DNA from: an uncultured Thermoproteaceae archaeon | GTDB taxonomy: Archaea > Thermoproteota > Thermoprotei > Thermoproteales > Thermocladiaceae | Assembly: GCA_964575955.1 (NCBI GenBank) | Contig: CAZNTG010000006.1 | Location: forward strand, 416,001-480,000 | Length of the DNA: 64,000 nucleotides | Direction: 5' to 3' | Shown here: positions 25,819 to 34,034 of the stretch, in pieces | Layout: each line of letters begins with the position of its first letter | Numbering within the stretch: the first letter of the stretch is position 1 | The notes under the pieces: generated by a model | Told to the model about the DNA's origin: nothing | Seen by the model: the letters and a program-made list of their open reading frames with translations, nothing else | Databases searched by the model: none | Made by a program: the position numbers and the translations under genes

Positions 25819-26265
25819 TTACTTCTTGAGTTTTGGAACTTCTGGTACTCCAAGCTTCTCTGGTTCGTGGCTTAGTACTGGTTCTTTGAGCTTTGCTGGG
25901 TCTGGTTCTGGATATTCTTGTGGTGCTTTTATTGATCCCCATGGTGTTGTTCTTATAACCATCTTAAATCTTAATACTTTTCCTGATCTGTAGATTACGG
26001 TCCACATTATTGAGTCTGTACCTCTCATTGGTACTAATCTACCTCCAAGTGGTGCAACATCTGTATAGTGTCTAATCTCGATTGCTCCCTGTGGACACAT
26101 CTTTGCACATGAGAAGCATTCCCAACACATGTCTGGCTCTATGTTATATGATTTTCCTGTTGTTTTGTCAAGGTGCATTAGATCGTTTGGACATATGTAG
26201 TTACATGCTGGTACTGCAAGTGCTTTACAACCGTCACATTTCTCTGGATTAACTACAGGGGGCAT
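25819..26265 (-). CDS. aprB: Adenylylsulfate reductase beta subunit
   Basis: CDGC...CNYICPNDLM, CWECFSCAKMCPQGAI, SIMWT, IRTTPWGS tail. Confidence 0.97.
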   Translation of the reverse strand: MPPVVNPEKCDGCKALAVPACNYICPNDLMHLDKTTGKSYNIEPDMCWECFSCAKMCPQGAIEIRHYTDVAPLGGRLVPMRGTDSIMWTVIYRSGKVLRFKMVIRTTPWGSIKAPQEYPEPDPAKLKEPVLSHEPEKLGVPEVPKLKK

Positions 26266-26372
26266 TGTTGTGATATGTGTAGTCTATTGCTTTTAAGCTT
26301 CTTCCTCTTCGTGTAAAGGAGACATGTGATGGTAATAGTTAAATGAATTAATCAAGATTTAGGGTATCAAGT

Positions 26373-28244
26373 ATGCCATATCCAACAGGTGTAGAAAAGG
26401 TAGAGTGTGACATTCTAATAATAGGAGGTGGAATGTCAGGATGTGGAGCTGCATATGAGGCAAAGTATTGGGGTAGAAAGCTAAAGGTAGTTCTCGTAGA
26501 GAAGGCAGCAACAGAGAGAAGTGGTGCAGTAGCTGCAGGATTATCAGCAATTAACCTATACCTAGGAATGAGATGGGGTGAGAATACACCAGAAGACTAT
26601 GTTAGATATGTGAGAAACGACTTGATGGGTATTGTTAGAGAAGACCTAGTATATGACGTAGCTAGACATGTAGACTCAACAGTACACCTATTCGAAGAGT
26701 GGGGTCTACCAATCTACAAGGATCCAAAAACTGGTAGATATCTAAGAGAGGGTAGATGGCAGGTACTGATATCAGGAGAGTCATACAAGCCAATTGTTGC
26801 AGAGGCAGCAAAGAAGGCTGTAGATGCACTATATGAGAGAGTATTCATAACACATCTCCTACCTGACAAGAACAATCCAAGAAGAGTAGCTGGAGCAATA
26901 GGATTTGGTGTTAGAGATGGAAAGCTCTACATATTCCTAGCAAAGGCAGTAATAATGGCAGCAGGAGGAGCAGTACACATATTCAGACCAAGATCACATG
27001 GTGAAGGTATGGGTAGAACATGGTATCCACCATGGGACAGTGGTAGCTCATATGCAATGATGATAATGATGGGTGCAGAGATGACACAGATGGAGAATAG
27101 ATTCGTACCAATGAGATTCAAGGACGGTTATGGACCAGTAGGTGCATACTTCCTATTCCTAAAGTGTAAGGCAACAAATGCAATGGGTGAAGACTACTTT
27201 GCAAAGGGTGTCGAGAAGTTAAAGCAGATGAAGGACAAGTATGGACCATATGTAGAAGCAACACCACTACCAACATGTCTAAGAAACCACATAATGCTAG
27301 AAGAATTGAAGGAGGGTAGAGGACCAATATTCATGAGACATGACTTAGCAATTAAGGAGGTAGCAGATCCAAAGGAGAGAGCAGCTAGAGAGAGATGGTG
27401 TTGGGAGGACTTCCTAGACATGACACCATCACAGGCACTATTATGGGCATGTATGAACATAGACCCAGCTGAGAAACCATCAGAGCTAATGGTAGCTGAG
27501 CCATACATCATGGGTTCACACGCAGGATGTGCAGGAGCATGGGTAAGCGGTCCAGAAGACATAGCACCACCAGAATACCAGTTCGCATATAACAGAATGA
27601 CAACAATCGAAGGACTATTCGCATGTGGTGACGCTGTAGGTGCATCAGCACACAAGTTCTCAAGCGGATCATTCACAGAGGGTAGAATCGCAGGTAAGTC
27701 TGCAGTAAGATTTGTAGTTGAGAAAGCAGCAGACTACAAGCCAGAGGTTGATGAACAGCTAATTGAGAATCTAAAGGTCAAGATATTTGAACCATTAGAG
27801 AGATATGAGAAGGGTAAGGCAACAACAACAAGACCAGACCTATCATTTGAGTACATACTACCACAGCAAGGATTAAGAAGACTACACAAGATAATGGACG
27901 AGTATGCAGCAGGATACTCAATGTGGTACACAACAAACGAGCCAATGCTACAGAGAGGTCTAGAGCTAGTACTAATGCTTAAGGAAGACCTTGAGAAGCT
28001 AGGTGCAAGAGACCTACACGACCTGATGAGATGTTGGGAGCTAGTACACAGAGTATGGACAGCAGAAGCACACATAAGACACATGCTATTTAGAAAAGAG
28101 ACAAGATGGCCAGGATACTACTATAGAGCAGACTATCCAAATGTTGATGACCAGAACTGGAAGTGCTTCGTAAACTCAGTATACGATCCAAAGACTGGTG
28201 AGTGGAAGCTATTCACAAGACCATACATACAGCTAGTACCATAA
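26373..28244 (+). CDS. aprA: Adenylylsulfate reductase alpha subunit
   Basis: GGGMSGCGAA, RSGAVAAGLSAIN, GESYKPIVAE, RFKDGYGPVGA, HKFSSGSFTEGR, ETRWPGYYYR. Confidence 0.98.
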   Translation: MPYPTGVEKVECDILIIGGGMSGCGAAYEAKYWGRKLKVVLVEKAATERSGAVAAGLSAINLYLGMRWGENTPEDYVRYVRNDLMGIVREDLVYDVARHVDSTVHLFEEWGLPIYKDPKTGRYLREGRWQVLISGESYKPIVAEAAKKAVDALYERVFITHLLPDKNNPRRVAGAIGFGVRDGKLYIFLAKAVIMAAGGAVHIFRPRSHGEGMGRTWYPPWDSGSSYAMMIMMGAEMTQMENRFVPMRFKDGYGPVGAYFLFLKCKATNAMGEDYFAKGVEKLKQMKDKYGPYVEATPLPTCLRNHIMLEELKEGRGPIFMRHDLAIKEVADPKERAARERWCWEDFLDMTPSQALLWACMNIDPAEKPSELMVAEPYIMGSHAGCAGAWVSGPEDIAPPEYQFAYNRMTTIEGLFACGDAVGASAHKFSSGSFTEGRIAGKSAVRFVVEKAADYKPEVDEQLIENLKVKIFEPLERYEKGKATTTRPDLSFEYILPQQGLRRLHKIMDEYAAGYSMWYTTNEPMLQRGLELVLMLKEDLEKLGARDLHDLMRCWELVHRVWTAEAHIRHMLFRKETRWPGYYYRADYPNVDDQNWKCFVNSVYDPKTGEWKLFTRPYIQLVP

Positions 28245-28369: not shown

Positions 28370-28765
28370 ATGAGTACAAGTCCTGAAGCTTATGTTTCAG
28401 AAGCAGCTATTCTAGATCTGAGTAAGGAGTTTGATGAGGAGTTGTATAAGGCATTTATTAAGAGGTATGGGATCGATTTTAAGGCATGTATGCAATGTGC
28501 GACATGTGTATCAGTATGTCCACTATCTGACATAGTTCCTGGAATGCCTAGACTAGACATGCTTCTTGCAGGTCTTGGACTTTTTAATGAGATTGCACGT
28601 AGATTATCACCATGGATATGTGATCAATGTATGGAATGTTCTAGAAATTGTCCACGTAGAGCAAATCCTGCTAAGATTCTTGCAGCTCTTAGAGAGATCT
28701 TAACAGCAATGTACGATCCTACTGGAATTACTAAGCGTGTAATTCTTGGTAGAGCTAAGAAGTAG
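28370..28765 (+). CDS. QmoC soluble (HdrC-like) 2x[4Fe-4S] domain as a separate gene
   Basis: CMQCATCVSVCP and CDQCMECSRNCPRRANP, followed by YDPTG as in the QmoC N-terminal part; no transmembrane segment. Confidence 0.8.
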   Translation: MSTSPEAYVSEAAILDLSKEFDEELYKAFIKRYGIDFKACMQCATCVSVCPLSDIVPGMPRLDMLLAGLGLFNEIARRLSPWICDQCMECSRNCPRRANPAKILAALREILTAMYDPTGITKRVILGRAKK

Positions 28766-28818
28766 GTTTAGTATTGATAAAACTAAAAAATAGTTTAGAC
28801 TTAACATCTACGAGTTAC

Positions 28819-31290
28819 ATGACTAAAGTTGGAGTTTATATATGTACTTGTAGAGCTGTTACAGAAGTTATAGACGTGAATAAGCTTGCTGAAGATGTTA
28901 AGAAGATTGAAGGTGTTGAACTTGTAAAATTCATAAAGTCATGCTACGACTATGATGAGATTATTAAAGATTTACAGGAGAAGAGGATTGAGCGTGTAGT
29001 AATTGCAGGTTGTTCTCCAAGATATGTTCTAGATATTGCAAGAGAGAGAATTACACTAGCAGTACCTGACATAAGTCCATTATGGATTGAGGTAGCACCA
29101 ATACGTGAACAGGCAGCATGGGCATTTAGAAATGATAGACAGAGAGCTCAAGAAGCTGCATTAACATACATAAAGGCATATGTATCGAGAGTAAAAGCTG
29201 CAGAATACATACCTAGAGAAGTTGAGGTTGAGAGAGTTAGAAGAGCATTAGTGATAGGTGCAGGTATTGCTGGACTTACAGCAGCTGTAGATTTAGCAGA
29301 TATGGGTATAGAAGTCATAGTTGTTGAGAAGAGACCATATGTAGGTGGTAAAGTCGTACAATTAGCAAGGTACTTCCCAAAGATGTGTCCACCATACTGT
29401 GGTATAGAGTTCATACTTGGAAGACTTAAAGCAAGAGCAAACCCACTCATAAAGATATACACAAATGCAGAAGTACTAGAAGTATATGGATCACCAGGAA
29501 AGTTCAAGGCTAAGATTAGAGTTAATCCAAGATATGTAGATCCTGAGAAGTGTTTAGCATGTGGTAAATGTAGTGAAGTATGTCCTGTAGAAGTACCAAA
29601 CGAGTTTGATTTTGGACTATCTAAGAGAAAGGCAATATACCTACCTCACGAACTTGCATGGCCATATGCACATGTTGTAGATCCTGAAAATTGTCTAGAA
29701 ATTAAGAATCCCGGATCATGTGGTAAGTGTATTGAAGTCTGTCAATCAGGTGCTATAAATCTGAAAGAGCAGCCTAGAGAATTTGAAGTTGAGGTTGGTG
29801 CTGTAATCGTAGCAACAGGATGGGAGCCTTACGATGCTAAGAAGCTTGAACATCTAGGATATGGAAAGTATCCAAATGTCATAACTAACGTACAGATGGA
29901 GAGACTACTAGCACCAAATGGACCGACTAAAGGTGAGGTTATAGTTCCAGGTCTTGGTAGAAAGCCTAGGAAGATAGTATTTATACAATGTGCAGGTCAG
30001 AGAGATGAGAATCATCTACCATACTGTAGTGCTGTATGCTGTGCAGCAACTGTGAAGCAGGCAATTACAATAGCTGAGAGATGTCCAGATACTCAAATCT
30101 ACATATTCTACATTGACGTAAGAACATTCGGACTCTACGAACTATTCTACAAACAGGCAGGTAAGTATCCAAACATATTCTTCATACGTGGCAGAGCTTG
30201 GAAAGTTGAGCAAGATCCAGCTACTGGAGAACTTGTAGTATATGCTGAAGATACAATACTTGGAAGAAAGGTCTCAGTTAGAGCTGACCTAGTAGTACTA
30301 GCTGTGGGTATGGTACCATCATTGAGAGTTAATCCACCATCATGGTATAAGTCAGGTGTTGGTAGATCATGGGAGCAGGAACTACTACAAATACCAAGAC
30401 ATCAGTACTTCGTTGAGAGTGACTACATATGCTTCCCAATGGAGACTAAGAGAACTGGAATATATGCATGTGGATGTGCTATGTGGCCAATGGATGTTCA
30501 GACTAGTGTAGCAACAGCACATGCAGCAGCTATGAGAGCTGCATCAGTAATACTTGGAAAGGCTAGAACAGAATACTCATATCTAACAGATCCAAACCAG
30601 ATAAAGATAGAGACTATAAAGTGTACACAATGTAAGAGATGTACTGAAGAATGTCCATTTGACACATACTCATTCGATGAACGTGGATATCCAAAACCTG
30701 ACCCATTGAAATGTAGAAGATGTGGTATATGTGTTGGTGCATGTCCAGCAGTTGCACTATCATTACCATATCACAACACTGAGCTAATAATGAGCATGAT
30801 TAAGAGTATAGATATCAAGTCTGACAAGCCACAGGTAATAGTGTTTGCATGTGTAAATGATGCATATGCATCACTAGACATAGCACTTAGACAAGGTAAG
30901 ACACTACCACCAGAAGTTGAGTTGGTAATACCTGTACCATGTATAGGTAGTGTAAACATGAGATGGGTAACTGATGCACTATCACTAGGATTTGACGGTA
31001 TACTACTACTAGGATGTAGAAGTGGCGAAGCAACAGCAACACAGCAATGCCACTTCATTAGAGGACCCGACTTAGAGAGAACTAGAATAGAGAACTTGAG
31101 AGATACATTACAGAAGATGATGATTGAACCAGAGAGAGTTAAACTTGTAGAGATAACATTAGAAGACTATAACAAGGTTGTGGAAGTAATACGTGACTTC
31201 GTTGAGCAGATAAAGAAGATGGGTCTAAACCCAATGAAGCAGTTTGCTGGAGGTGCTGGAATGGAGTACGGATTTGGATACACATTCTAA
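28819..31290 (+). CDS. HdrA-MvhD fusion flavoprotein with both QmoA and QmoB signatures
   Basis: GAGIAG FAD site, YFPKMCPPYCG, QCAGQRDENHLPYCSAVCC, CTQCKRCTEECP, CRRCGICVGACP, C-terminal MvhD-like CVNDAY/PCIGSVN/QCHF; ATG 28819 preferred. Confidence 0.9.
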   Translation: MTKVGVYICTCRAVTEVIDVNKLAEDVKKIEGVELVKFIKSCYDYDEIIKDLQEKRIERVVIAGCSPRYVLDIARERITLAVPDISPLWIEVAPIREQAAWAFRNDRQRAQEAALTYIKAYVSRVKAAEYIPREVEVERVRRALVIGAGIAGLTAAVDLADMGIEVIVVEKRPYVGGKVVQLARYFPKMCPPYCGIEFILGRLKARANPLIKIYTNAEVLEVYGSPGKFKAKIRVNPRYVDPEKCLACGKCSEVCPVEVPNEFDFGLSKRKAIYLPHELAWPYAHVVDPENCLEIKNPGSCGKCIEVCQSGAINLKEQPREFEVEVGAVIVATGWEPYDAKKLEHLGYGKYPNVITNVQMERLLAPNGPTKGEVIVPGLGRKPRKIVFIQCAGQRDENHLPYCSAVCCAATVKQAITIAERCPDTQIYIFYIDVRTFGLYELFYKQAGKYPNIFFIRGRAWKVEQDPATGELVVYAEDTILGRKVSVRADLVVLAVGMVPSLRVNPPSWYKSGVGRSWEQELLQIPRHQYFVESDYICFPMETKRTGIYACGCAMWPMDVQTSVATAHAAAMRAASVILGKARTEYSYLTDPNQIKIETIKCTQCKRCTEECPFDTYSFDERGYPKPDPLKCRRCGICVGACPAVALSLPYHNTELIMSMIKSIDIKSDKPQVIVFACVNDAYASLDIALRQGKTLPPEVELVIPVPCIGSVNMRWVTDALSLGFDGILLLGCRSGEATATQQCHFIRGPDLERTRIENLRDTLQKMMIEPERVKLVEITLEDYNKVVEVIRDFVEQIKKMGLNPMKQFAGGAGMEYGFGYTF

Positions 31291-31417: not shown

Positions 31418-32272
31418 ATGTCAACAGGAGACTTTATACCATACTACTCCTACTATGTTGATCCCGTACTAGTATTAATACTTGGTGCAATATGCTCAAT
31501 AATACCTGCAATAATATTGATAATAGGATTATATAGAATGTACCAATTTGTAAAACCATCACTTGGAGATCGTAGACAGAATGTTATTAAAGCATTTTTC
31601 TATACATTAATTGAAGAATTTATAATACATAGAAATCTTTCAAAATGTAGACCTGAATGGACTAGATGGATTTTACATCAGATGGTTCTATGGGGTATGG
31701 TTATTCTTGTCGGCTGTACAGGTTTTGACGCAATTGTCGATCATGAAGATATTCTCCTCTGTGGTCTTGCAAATCCATACCTAAAACCTATTGCTGAAGC
31801 AATGTTACCACCATATCTACACAATGTTCCTCTAAGTGCTGCAATTGCTGCATGTGGTAGAGTTATGCATACACTTGCAGACCCTGTAAAGATTCTATAC
31901 AACATTGGTGGTATATTACTAGTAGCTGGATGTATAGGTCTTATTGTTAGAAGATTTGTAAATAAGGATGCTCGTGAATGTGTTATAGCATACGACTGGT
32001 ATTTACTAGTATTACTGACATTCGTAGGTGTTTCAGGTTATGTTGCAGAGATTCTTAGATTAATAGCATACACATACTGGAAGATGGGACTTACAACAAT
32101 TGCAGCATACTTCTTCTATCCTGGTCTAGTAATATATTGTGCACATCTAATATCTGTAGCAATACTATTCCTATCAATACCATTTACAAAGACTGCACAT
32201 GTAGTATATAGATTCTTCGCACTACTATGGGTAAGGTATAGAGGTATTAGAGCTACAGAGTTAGTAGTTTAA
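31418..32272 (+). CDS. QmoC membrane (heme b, NarI/HdrE-like) domain as a separate gene
   Basis: About 5-6 hydrophobic helices; His in WILHQ, CAHL and FTKTAHVVYR; DPVKILYNIGG. Confidence 0.82.
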   Translation: MSTGDFIPYYSYYVDPVLVLILGAICSIIPAIILIIGLYRMYQFVKPSLGDRRQNVIKAFFYTLIEEFIIHRNLSKCRPEWTRWILHQMVLWGMVILVGCTGFDAIVDHEDILLCGLANPYLKPIAEAMLPPYLHNVPLSAAIAACGRVMHTLADPVKILYNIGGILLVAGCIGLIVRRFVNKDARECVIAYDWYLLVLLTFVGVSGYVAEILRLIAYTYWKMGLTTIAAYFFYPGLVIYCAHLISVAILFLSIPFTKTAHVVYRFFALLWVRYRGIRATELVV

Positions 32273-32869: not shown

Positions 32870-32948
32870 GTATTACCGAGACTGATAGCTTGAAGTCTTT
32901 AAGCTTAGGTTTTTAAATATTATGTGTATTATCAGTGGTGAGAGATCT

Positions 32949-34034
32949 ATGTCTCGTAGAAAGAAGACTGAAACTACAAGTAGTGGAAGTACAAGCACAG
33001 CATCGACCAGTGTAGAAACTACAACTACAAGTAGTGCAGAGACCAGTGACCCAGCAACACAATCATCATCACAGACAAATCCACTAGAGTCTGAATATGC
33101 TATGATGGATGTTGAAGAAATTGATGGTGTTGGTAGAGTAACGGCACAGAAGCTTCGTGAAGCTGGATATCTAACTGTTAGAGATGTAGCATTTGCAAGT
33201 GTTAAAGAGCTTGCTGAAGTTATAGGTAGTGAAGATAGAGCATATCAAATAATTAGAGCAGCACAGAAGTTGTTAAGAATTAAGCCGTTCGTAACAGCAC
33301 TAGAACTTTACGAACGTAGGAGAAATATAAAGAAGATAAGCACAGGTGTCAGATCACTAGACGAACTACTTGGAGGTGGTATTGAGACTAGAGCAATTAC
33401 AGAATTTGTAGGTGAGTTTGGTGCAGGTAAGACACAGCTATGTCACCAACTTGCAGTAATGGTACAACTTCCAGAAGATAAAGGTGGACTAAACGCTAAA
33501 GCATTATACATAGATACTGAAGGAACATTCAGACCTGAGAGGATTATGCAAATAGCAAAGTACCGTGGTCTAGATCCAAAAGAAGCACTTAAAGGAATTC
33601 TATATGCAAGAGCCTACAACAGCGATCACCAAATGATGATTGTTGATGAAGCTAGAAAGATAATAGATAAGGAGAACATTAGACTGATAATAATTGACTC
33701 ATTAATATCACACTTCAGAGCTGAATATCCAGGAAGAGAAAATCTTGCAGAAAGACAGCAGAAGTTGAATCAACACATATCACAACTATTGAGAATTGCA
33801 GATATACACAACGTAGCTGTAGTAGTTACAAATCAAGTAATTGCACAACCTGACGTATTCTTTGGAAATCCACTAAAACCTGCTGGAGGTAACGTACTTG
33901 CACATGGAGCAACATATAGAATATGGTTAAGAAAGAGTAAGGAGAGTATTAGAATTGCAAAGATATTTGACAGTCCAATGCATCCTGAGCGTGAAGTAAC
34001 ATTTAAGATAACTGAAAATGGATGTGTAGACTAG
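32949..34034 (+). CDS. radA: DNA repair and recombination protein RadA
   Basis: [34 protein letters not shown]; Ser/Thr-rich N-terminus; ATG 32949 follows GGTGA. Confidence 0.98.

Follow-up and report, generated by a model that had tools for sequence, protein, structure and literature searches.

The window analysed here is a stretch of 64,000 nt (positions 416001–480000 of contig C6) from a 1.52 Mb archaeal genome in 15 contigs, rated 94.69% complete, whose closest public relatives are metagenome-assembled genomes (MAGs) titled Thermoproteota, Thermoproteales or Thermoproteaceae archaeon. It contains aprA and aprB, for the two subunits of adenosine 5′-phosphosulfate (APS) reductase, together with genes for an HdrC-like iron-sulfur (Fe-S) protein, a flavoprotein that we designate HdrA::MvhD, and a cytochrome b-like membrane protein (Table 1). 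We consider it rather likely that these genes, with aprB divergent from the other four, code for an APS reductase together with a membrane complex that resembles Qmo and has a third architecture, distinct, as had been predicted, from the type I and type II Qmo described in the literature (PMC10504309, PMC8477390; statements drawn from these papers, and from PMC3333476 and PMC7174415 below, refer to the available portions of their text). From its sequence, we propose that the single HdrA::MvhD flavoprotein, with flavin adenine dinucleotide (FAD), six [4Fe-4S] sites and a [2Fe-2S] MvhD domain, would hold the roles of both QmoA and QmoB. The identity of AprAB is clear, both aprA and aprB scoring above curated equivalog cut-offs. 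An earlier note on this stretch, hereafter the original prediction, held that only one HdrA-like gene follows aprA: the gene is indeed single, but it does not directly adjoin aprA, because the gene for the 131-aa Fe-S protein lies between them.

The hdrA::mvhD open reading frame (ORF) gives a stop-free translation of 823 aa, in which all the motifs formerly quoted for it are present (VGVYIC, GCSPR, IREQ, QLARYFPKMCPPYCG, QMERLLAPNGPT, SDYICFPMETKRTGIY, CTQCKRCTEECPF and CRRCGICVGACP). Residues 3–660 align with residues 5–645 of the Methanothermococcus HdrA structure 5odc_A (E 2.7e-130), and the cysteine groups of the N-terminal domain, the FAD core and the inserted and C-terminal ferredoxins are all kept, including both cluster motifs of the inserted ferredoxin; the FAD site and the six [4Fe-4S] cysteine sets of HdrA, in four domains, are thus found in this alignment. 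Residues C9, C42 and C65, those of the C-terminal ferredoxin (C602, C605, C608, C612, C632, C635, C638 and C642) and those of the MvhD domain (C678, C708, C733 and C744) are invariant in alignment A1 (16 aligned relatives). Family PF02662 (FlpD/MvhD) matches aa 673–802 as one domain with 121.1 bits (cut-off 22.3), and a PDB search matched solved MvhD chains to aa 670–809 and turned up no solved Qmo structure. Since Pfam recognises one dinucleotide-binding stretch (aa 143–177), the protein has a single FAD site and is therefore not a tandem fusion of QmoA and QmoB, as the original prediction maintained. The protein ends in a Gly- and aromatic-rich tail (window 31243–31287, aa 809–823; …GGAGMEYGFGYTF) that extends past the GPNP(F/Y)KGF end common to QmoB and the Archaeoglobus-type proteins; in the alignment this tail is confined to the clade of the window protein (window clade), the homologue from genus g2 having a similar Gly-rich tail.

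The flavoprotein was divided into six segments, each of which was searched against 353 relatives. All six were present in the window protein and six close relatives, as well as in 29 other matches from the protein collection and five ORFs from Archaeoglobaceae. Type I QmoA consisted only of the core and the inserted ferredoxin in 107 of 108 sequences, whereas type I QmoB had the core, the C-terminal ferredoxin and MvhD and was without the inserted ferredoxin in 105 of 105, with the N-terminal domain detected in 71 of them. These searches bear out, as domain content, the predicted combination of a QmoA-like core with QmoB-like ends, and the "chimeric" look of the protein is that of an intact HdrA::MvhD plan, of which QmoA and QmoB each retain a different part. 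Identity per segment was 45–49% to QmoA, 27–45% to QmoB and 30–50% to full-length HdrA::MvhD proteins. The window protein shares with type I QmoB the MvhD-like C-terminal domain but differs from it in having the inserted ferredoxin and the core motif YFPKMCPPYCG, and it differs from type I QmoA (~410 aa) in having the N-terminal domain, the C-terminal ferredoxin and MvhD. Among the sequences aligned, YFPK(M/L)CPPYCG is common to the window clade, type I QmoA and Archaeoglobus-type HdrA::MvhD, and is not found in type I QmoB, type II or 5odc_A. Seven proteins of 1100–1365 aa from the collection (P0012, P0016, P0020, P0024, P0072, P0078 and P0082), with FlpD domains and scores at least equal to those of the single-length relatives, may be tandem fusions of two HdrA-like units.

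The two genes flanking hdrA::mvhD resemble different parts of QmoC, which is a fusion of an HdrC-like and an HdrE-like module (PMC3333476). The 131-aa protein matches positions 4–99 of 360 in the QmoC model NF038018 and the membrane protein positions 152–359, as expected from the split QmoC of the original prediction. The former also matches the HdrC model TIGR03290 (45.2 bits) and, as in the HdrC-like module of QmoC with its two [4Fe-4S] motifs, contains two CxxCxxCxxxCP sequences; C40, C43, C46, C50, C84, C87, C90 and C94 are invariant in alignment A2. The latter matches PF02665 with 31 bits, and a hydropathy scan gave seven partly overlapping windows that we read as five helices. Its residues H71, H87, H243 and H261 align with histidines of type I QmoC, with H87, H243 and H261 invariant in alignment A3, and the four are predicted to be, as in QmoC, the ligands of two haems. 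The small protein stops before helix 1 of QmoC and the membrane protein starts at helix 2, so that the linker helix is absent.

A search of the genome's proteins with the flavoprotein gave one full match and four short matches to ferredoxin domains, and tblastn with seven QmoA, QmoB and HdrA queries gave a strong match only at C6:444801–447245, all others scoring 48.5 bits or less. Neither search found a second HdrA-, QmoA- or QmoB-like gene in the 94.69%-complete genome, so that the partner gene of a type I QmoB was not found in it; these searches, and the trees below, speak against an ordinary QmoB with a separate qmoA elsewhere. The genome likewise contains no second FlpD domain and no other QmoC-like gene. 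Only two of its proteins have CCG domains (PF02754), both DsrK-like and neither near hdrA::mvhD, and hence there is no HdrB or HdrD at hand for the partnership with HdrB/HdrC or HdrD (CCG domains) that is expected of an HdrA.

The genes sat and dsr are outside the window, as the original prediction stated, and the genome search that it proposed found sat, dsrAB, dsrC and dsrMK on the same contig, without another qmoA. Gene sat is situated ~51 kb past the window end (472.4 bits, cut-off 387) and dsrABC-MK ~157 kb ahead of the window start. Within this cluster, dsrA (287 bits) and dsrB (334 bits) are both somewhat below curated cut-offs, dsrC (106 bits) is above its own and DsrK (350.5 bits) is below its cut-off of 400; a NarI-like protein of 333 aa is probably DsrM. 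The divergent dsrA (−) faces dsrB (C6 ~257244–259991; locus L298 8245–10992) just as aprB (−) faces aprA (window 25819–26373); the latter divergent pair is also kept in L007, L008, L013 and L207, and aprB and aprA are co-directional in other loci surveyed. The contig also carries a uroporphyrinogen methyltransferase-like gene and quinone-biosynthesis-like genes (MenA-like and UbiD-family), and the large subunit of [NiFe]-hydrogenase has eight matches in the genome, grouped as ~6 loci. The sat, apr, dsr, quinone and hydrogenase genes therefore give the organism the genetic equipment for dissimilatory sulfate reduction, including a quinone and possibly an input from H2. The archaeal relatives and the sat, dsrABC and dsrMK genes agree with the archaeal dissimilatory sulfur pathway that had been envisaged.

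The order aprB (−), aprA, Fe-S gene, hdrA::mvhD and cytochrome b gene is shared by two genera belonging to a single family of the Thermoproteales. To the extent that their contigs cover it, it is the same in five other MAG records with 86–93% identity (L006, L007, L008 (= L093), L009, and L010 with L013), and it recurs with 70% identity in a second genus, g2 (G003, locus L207). An order-wide search of 62 genomes, including that of the window (G000), identified the full-length gene in five of the six other g1 genomes and in the only g2 genome; the remaining g1 genome has a completeness rating of 69%. The window clade is represented in the protein collection by 27 sequences, which fall into five clusters at 90% identity, and its nearest outside relative is the orphan P0013 (804 aa, 46% identical), whose gene neighbourhood was sought by a scan of genome contigs that gave 67 loci, none above 47% in the best segment.

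A survey was made of 160 loci, retrieved by searching with either the flavoprotein or AprA. At least two HdrA-like ORFs were present in 116 of them, and in 89 of these aprA was accompanied by a pair of HdrA-like ORFs and a single QmoC, typically arranged as aprB, aprA, qmoA (~410 aa), qmoB (~740 aa) and qmoC (~400 aa). Exactly one HdrA-like ORF was found in 14 loci: seven belong to the window clade (L006–L010, L013 and L093), three have an ORF cut by the contig end (L035, L134 and L142), two have a 357-aa ORF ~7 kb from aprBA (L096 and L097), and the remaining two, L011 and L012 (Desulfobaccales), have a divergent AprA-like gene. These last two (L011 3451–8538 and L012 3452–8524, from Desulfobaccales and 'delta proteobacterium' MAGs) contain genes for divergent AprA-like and AprB-like proteins, followed by those for a 790-aa HdrA::MvhD-type protein, with the inserted ferredoxin and no N-terminal domain detected, and a 193-aa HdrC-like protein. 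Their AprA-like protein scores ~367 bits to the window AprA and sits on a 3.26-long branch in the AprA tree; here, too, a single flavoprotein is found next to an Apr paralogue, and in the trees this arrangement is unrelated to the window clade.

Like type I QmoABC (Desulfovibrio, Archaeoglobus and Chlorobaculum; PMC3333476, PMC10504309), the window cluster is situated beside aprA and codes for an MvhD-bearing HdrA-derived flavoprotein, an HdrC-like module and a four-histidine cytochrome b. It differs in that one flavoprotein contains all the HdrA domains, whereas type I has two, QmoA and QmoB; in that the QmoC modules are two genes split by hdrA and without the linker helix, instead of a fused QmoC; and in the divergent aprB, as opposed to the aprBA order. 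Type II Qmo has been reported for 'Ca. Vulcanisaeta moutnovskia' and Ammonifex degensii (Chernyh et al., 2020, as cited in PMC10504309, PMC8477390). AprA was present in 42 of the 62 genomes of the order-wide search, and some genomes of genera g5, g3 and g7 contain a cluster of mvhD (141 aa), a qmoA-like gene (~459 aa), an hdrA-like gene without MvhD (~657 aa) and a fused qmoC (~374 aa), beside which aprA was not found within the 14–19 kb fetched. We presume that these clusters are type II Qmo. They share with the window cluster the order of origin and an archaeal HdrA-like Qmo, but in these sister genera mvhD is separate, the flavoproteins are two and qmoC is fused, which is not the case in the window, and their flavoproteins are 34–49% identical per segment to the window protein in the core and inserted ferredoxin and 25–28% in the termini. 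In loci L201–L206 (genomes G024, G023, G007, G041, G005 and G029), the type II-like cluster always starts with a separate MvhD-like gene of 133–149 aa; that of G005 has a different order and QmoC part, with a 111-aa HdrC-like ORF and no fused QmoC seen.

In genera g3, g4, g5 and g7, a weak NarI-like membrane gene precedes aprBA. Membrane proteins of 250–290 aa directly ahead of aprB-aprA were seen in L378 (8936–9802), L379 (5265–6131), L383 (2127–2903) and L099 (8770–9519), from other Thermoproteales genera and one unclassified archaeal MAG, with PF02665 scores of 16.7–23.9 bits, at or below the cut-off. The NarI-like protein could be an AprM-like or HdrE-like anchor of APS reductase without an adjacent HdrA-type protein.

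The phylogeny of the flavoprotein was examined with two quick maximum-likelihood trees, one for the FAD core (97 rows, 349 columns) and one for the N- plus C-terminal parts (73 rows, 363 columns), and with a careful tree of 46 hand-picked rows and 775 columns, for which ultrafast bootstrap (UFBoot) and SH-like approximate likelihood ratio (SH-aLRT) supports were obtained. The trees are unrooted and use 18 of the 99 loci with a QmoA/QmoB pair; rows from the protein collection were below 900 aa with the inserted ferredoxin (22 six-part and 9 without a detected N-terminal domain), leaving out 64 QmoB-like matches and forms above 1000 aa. In the careful tree, the window clade (support 100/100) groups with P0013, type I QmoA, with which it shares YFPK(M/L)CPPYCG, type I QmoB and the Archaeoglobus-type HdrA::MvhD at 100/98; the last four also group at 100/98 without the window clade. 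The QmoA (98/89) and QmoB (100/100) clades both exclude the window protein; QmoB and the Archaeoglobus-type proteins are sister groups (99/97), and QmoA is the sister of the two combined. Type II-like flavoproteins group with the canonical 658-aa HdrA and are separated from the window clade by a branch with 100/100 support. The core, ends and whole-protein trees all place the window clade in the same position, outside type I QmoA and QmoB. The flavoprotein thus belongs to a full-length lineage of its own, whose sister group is the clade that includes type I QmoA and QmoB.

Several observations weigh against reading the cluster as an APS reductase with a one-flavoprotein Qmo-like complex. A missing gene could be hidden, because the genome is 94.69% complete. 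Instead of one polypeptide exceeding the NF038018 cut-off of 300 bits, as in QmoC, there are two genes, whose products score 86.8 bits (131-aa protein) and 95 bits (cytochrome b); the tree of QmoC types, which includes one HdrD-like row (L214) on a 6.38-long branch, places this pair with a support of 42 and on a long branch. The best NCBIfam match of the flavoprotein is the HdrA2 model NF040770, with 639.8 bits over positions 1–773 of 777, below the cut-off of 1100; other HdrA models are also below their cut-offs (NF041778, 474.2 versus 1400; NF041891, 462.7 versus 1300). In approximately unbiased (AU) tests, whose groups were named after the trees were seen, holding the window clade with QmoA for the core alone was 28.3 log-likelihood units worse and was not rejected (p-AU 0.141). 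The HdrA::MvhD proteins of Archaeoglobaceae, among the nearest relatives after P0013, have a soluble HdrD-like partner, with no membrane module and no apr nearby. Finally, the intergenic gaps from aprA to the cytochrome b gene are 126, 53 and 127 bp, and each shows, as read by eye, an A/T-rich stretch ~25–35 nt ahead of the start codon; each gene may thus be served by a promoter of its own, and co-transcription would be an assumption.

Some of these points would fit a generic soluble Hdr-type, possibly bifurcating, HdrA-MvhD, serving for instance DsrC or another disulfide, with its adjacency to aprA being incidental. The window protein is like HdrA of HdrABC-MvhAGD (5odc, 7bkb and 8rvu) in its full-length alignment, its conserved cluster cysteines and its one FAD site; in HdrA2, its best family match, MvhD is fused on as well; and clade members are publicly annotated as "hydrogenase iron-sulfur subunit" or "heterodisulfide reductase subunit A", besides "QmoB". 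The Archaeoglobaceae proteins (~785 aa; L208, L211–L215 and L219) share the six-part architecture and are 42–46% identical overall by BLAST (P0014, 45%; FA_L208, 42.5%) and 30–50% by segment, and the nearest relatives with known context adjoin an HdrD-like protein and EtfBA. Locus L208 (7992–15489) contains genes for HdrA::MvhD (785 aa), an HdrD-like protein (399 aa, with HdrC-like and CCG-type parts), EtfB, EtfA and a canonical 658-aa HdrA; only this locus was annotated by family, L211–L215 and L219 being judged by the same ORF pattern. Nevertheless, the partners in the window are a QmoC-like pair and AprAB, with no adjacent HdrB, HdrC-CCG or HdrD and with the genome's CCG proteins being two DsrK-like ones elsewhere, and the score is below the HdrA family cut-offs. 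Moreover, the gene is flanked on both sides by QmoC modules, one of them an integral membrane cytochrome b, its linkage to aprA persists between two genera whose proteins are 70% identical, and QmoC-type partners accompany aprBA in surveyed loci. A soluble Hdr-type role thus appears unlikely.

QmoABC is considered the electron donor of AprAB, and tagged QmoA pulled down AprAB (PMC3333476). Menaquinol alone was deemed insufficient, which led to the proposal of confurcation, and it is still unsettled what QmoB does and whether a second, low-potential donor is needed (PMC3333476). In the reductive direction, the di-haem cytochrome b of the window would take electrons from menaquinol and the two-cluster protein would relay them to the FAD of the flavoprotein. 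The latter would most likely be a homodimer, by analogy with HdrA, which is dimeric in solved Hdr complexes. Electrons from a second low-potential donor, ferredoxin or hydrogenase, may enter through the inserted ferredoxin or MvhD, as proposed for QmoABC; they would pass on to AprB and AprA for the reduction of APS to sulfite, which DsrAB, DsrC and DsrMK would reduce in turn. We infer that these proteins associate in a single complex, and likewise the homodimeric state, the electron donors, the direction of flow and any energy coupling.

The same complex might instead run oxidatively, with AprAB oxidising sulfite to APS and electrons flowing to the quinone pool. The direction is not readable from these genes, and Apr and Qmo work in both directions in different organisms (PMC10504309). 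In the AprA tree (58 of 98 rows), the window clade forms its own branch, outside that of other Thermoproteales, in an unresolved three-way split; one of the other two branches is linked to type I Qmo and the other comprises AprA from other Thermoproteales and from Nitrososphaerota-labelled MAGs, without Qmo beside it, and for this reason no AprA donor can be named. Still, cultured members of the order are described as reducers of sulfate, sulfite or thiosulfate (PMC7174415), and the dsr set is the minimal dsrABC-MK (dsrEFH, dsrL and sox were not searched for), which argues by inference against oxidation and makes it quite unlikely.

An origin of the gene by recombination between type I qmoA (core) and type I qmoB (ends), as contemplated by the original prediction, is in keeping with the domain content and the core-only AU test but highly improbable, because the core, the ends and the whole protein all fall outside QmoA and QmoB, holding the ends with QmoB was 88.3 log-likelihood units worse and rejected (p-AU 0.0008; control with QmoB alone held, 19.05 units, p 0.174), segment identity to QmoA and QmoB is no higher than to full-length HdrA::MvhD, and the six-part architecture is widespread. 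Congruent trees and the rejected joining with QmoB therefore lend recombination no support.

A separate full-length lineage bears on the origin of type I Qmo. If the root is on the canonical HdrA side, the full-length plan would be ancestral and the window clade would have split off before the duplication of QmoA and QmoB with its complementary losses. The ancestral origin that the original prediction gave as its other option is compatible with the tree. Both the window clade and type I Qmo are linked to APS reductase by gene context. It is conceivable, if doubtful, that the cluster represents a pre-duplication and pre-fusion grade of Qmo, a symmetric HdrA::MvhD homodimer with separate HdrC-like and HdrE-like partners that was already linked to APS reductase. 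If so, type I QmoABC would have arisen by duplication of the flavoprotein, complementary domain loss, in which QmoA retained the inserted ferredoxin and QmoB the ends, and fusion of both membrane-module genes through an added linker helix. The Apr-Qmo link would then predate the QmoA/QmoB split, and these archaea would offer a natural 'minimal Qmo' for structural and mechanistic work.

The arrangements described in the literature are type I, type II, QmoAB-HdrBC/HdrD and AprM (PMC10504309, PMC8477390, PMC3333476). The available portions of the literature searched did not describe any Qmo with one flavoprotein and separate QmoC modules, although an earlier tabulation is possible, e.g., in Supplementary Figs 11–13 or the Supplementary Discussion of PMC10504309. 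The nearest hint comes from some Nitrososphaeria MAGs for which QmoB and QmoC were the only Qmo subunits detected (PMC8477390). The electron route to APS reductase is among the least settled steps of sulfate respiration, and a natural version with one complete HdrA-type flavoprotein, the fold and cofactors of which can be related to those in solved HdrA structures, would make a simpler system for tests of Qmo confurcation and AprAB docking. The window cluster would also be a third Apr-linked arrangement in one archaeal order, besides the NarI-like gene beside aprBA and the type II-like cluster elsewhere in the genome, and a flavoprotein branching below the QmoA/QmoB split bears on scenarios of separate transfers for archaeal sulfate reduction (PMC10504309).

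Table 1. Coordinates of the apr-hdrA::mvhD cluster and of the flavoprotein domains in the window.
Feature	Position	Strand	Evidence
aprB, APS reductase beta subunit	25819–26265	−	TIGR02060 199.1 bits (cut-off 135.65), PF12139 93.9 bits; divergent from aprA
aprA, APS reductase alpha subunit	26373–28244	+	TIGR02061 1003.7 bits (cut-off 641.75), aa 13–622 versus model 1–616 of 616
131-aa soluble protein with two [4Fe-4S] motifs, counterpart of the HdrC-like N-terminal module of QmoC	28370–28765	+	QmoC model NF038018, HdrC model TIGR03290
hdrA::mvhD, 823-aa flavoprotein	28819–31290	+	5odc_A alignment, NF040770, FlpD
N-terminal HdrA domain, aa 1–135	28819–29223	+	C9, C11, C42 and C65 align with 5odc_A cysteines
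FAD (thioredoxin-reductase-like) core part 1, aa 141–236	29239–29526	+	GAGIAG, YFPKMCPPYCG; Pfam dinucleotide-binding aa 143–177
Inserted ferredoxin domain, aa 237–314	29527–29760	+	Two cluster motifs; Fer4 matches start at aa 239–259
FAD core part 2, aa 315–580	29761–30558	+	FIQCAGQRDEN..YCSAVCC; aligns with 5odc_A, including cysteines
C-terminal ferredoxin domain, aa 585–665	30571–30813	+	Two CxxCxxCxxxCP motifs; Fer4_7 aa 601–644
MvhD-like domain, aa 668–808	30820–31242	+	Four conserved cysteines; PF02662 (FlpD/MvhD) aa 673–802
284-aa cytochrome b-like membrane protein, counterpart of the HdrE/NarI-like C-terminal module of QmoC	31418–32272	+	NF038018, PF02665

An alternative TTG start of hdrA::mvhD at 28774, used by one public gene call, would give a product of 838 aa. 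No sequencing run on record as RNA was listed among those containing the stretch. Runs X3 and X4 (one sample) and X7 have a metatranscriptomic library text and are flagged as probably DNA; they contain short contigs on aprB, on parts of aprA and on 28821–28993, with an additional one on 30966–31133 in X7, which we counted neither for nor against expression. DNA run X2, from another study, contains identical pieces along the stretch. The outer neighbours of the cluster are unrelated housekeeping genes, including one for diphthine-ammonia ligase (NCBIfam match) and a RadA-like ORF identified from its translation alone. From the first ATG of this ORF (32922–34034), ~60 Ser/Thr-rich N-terminal residues precede a Met-Met pair, and its true start may be downstream of the listed ATG.

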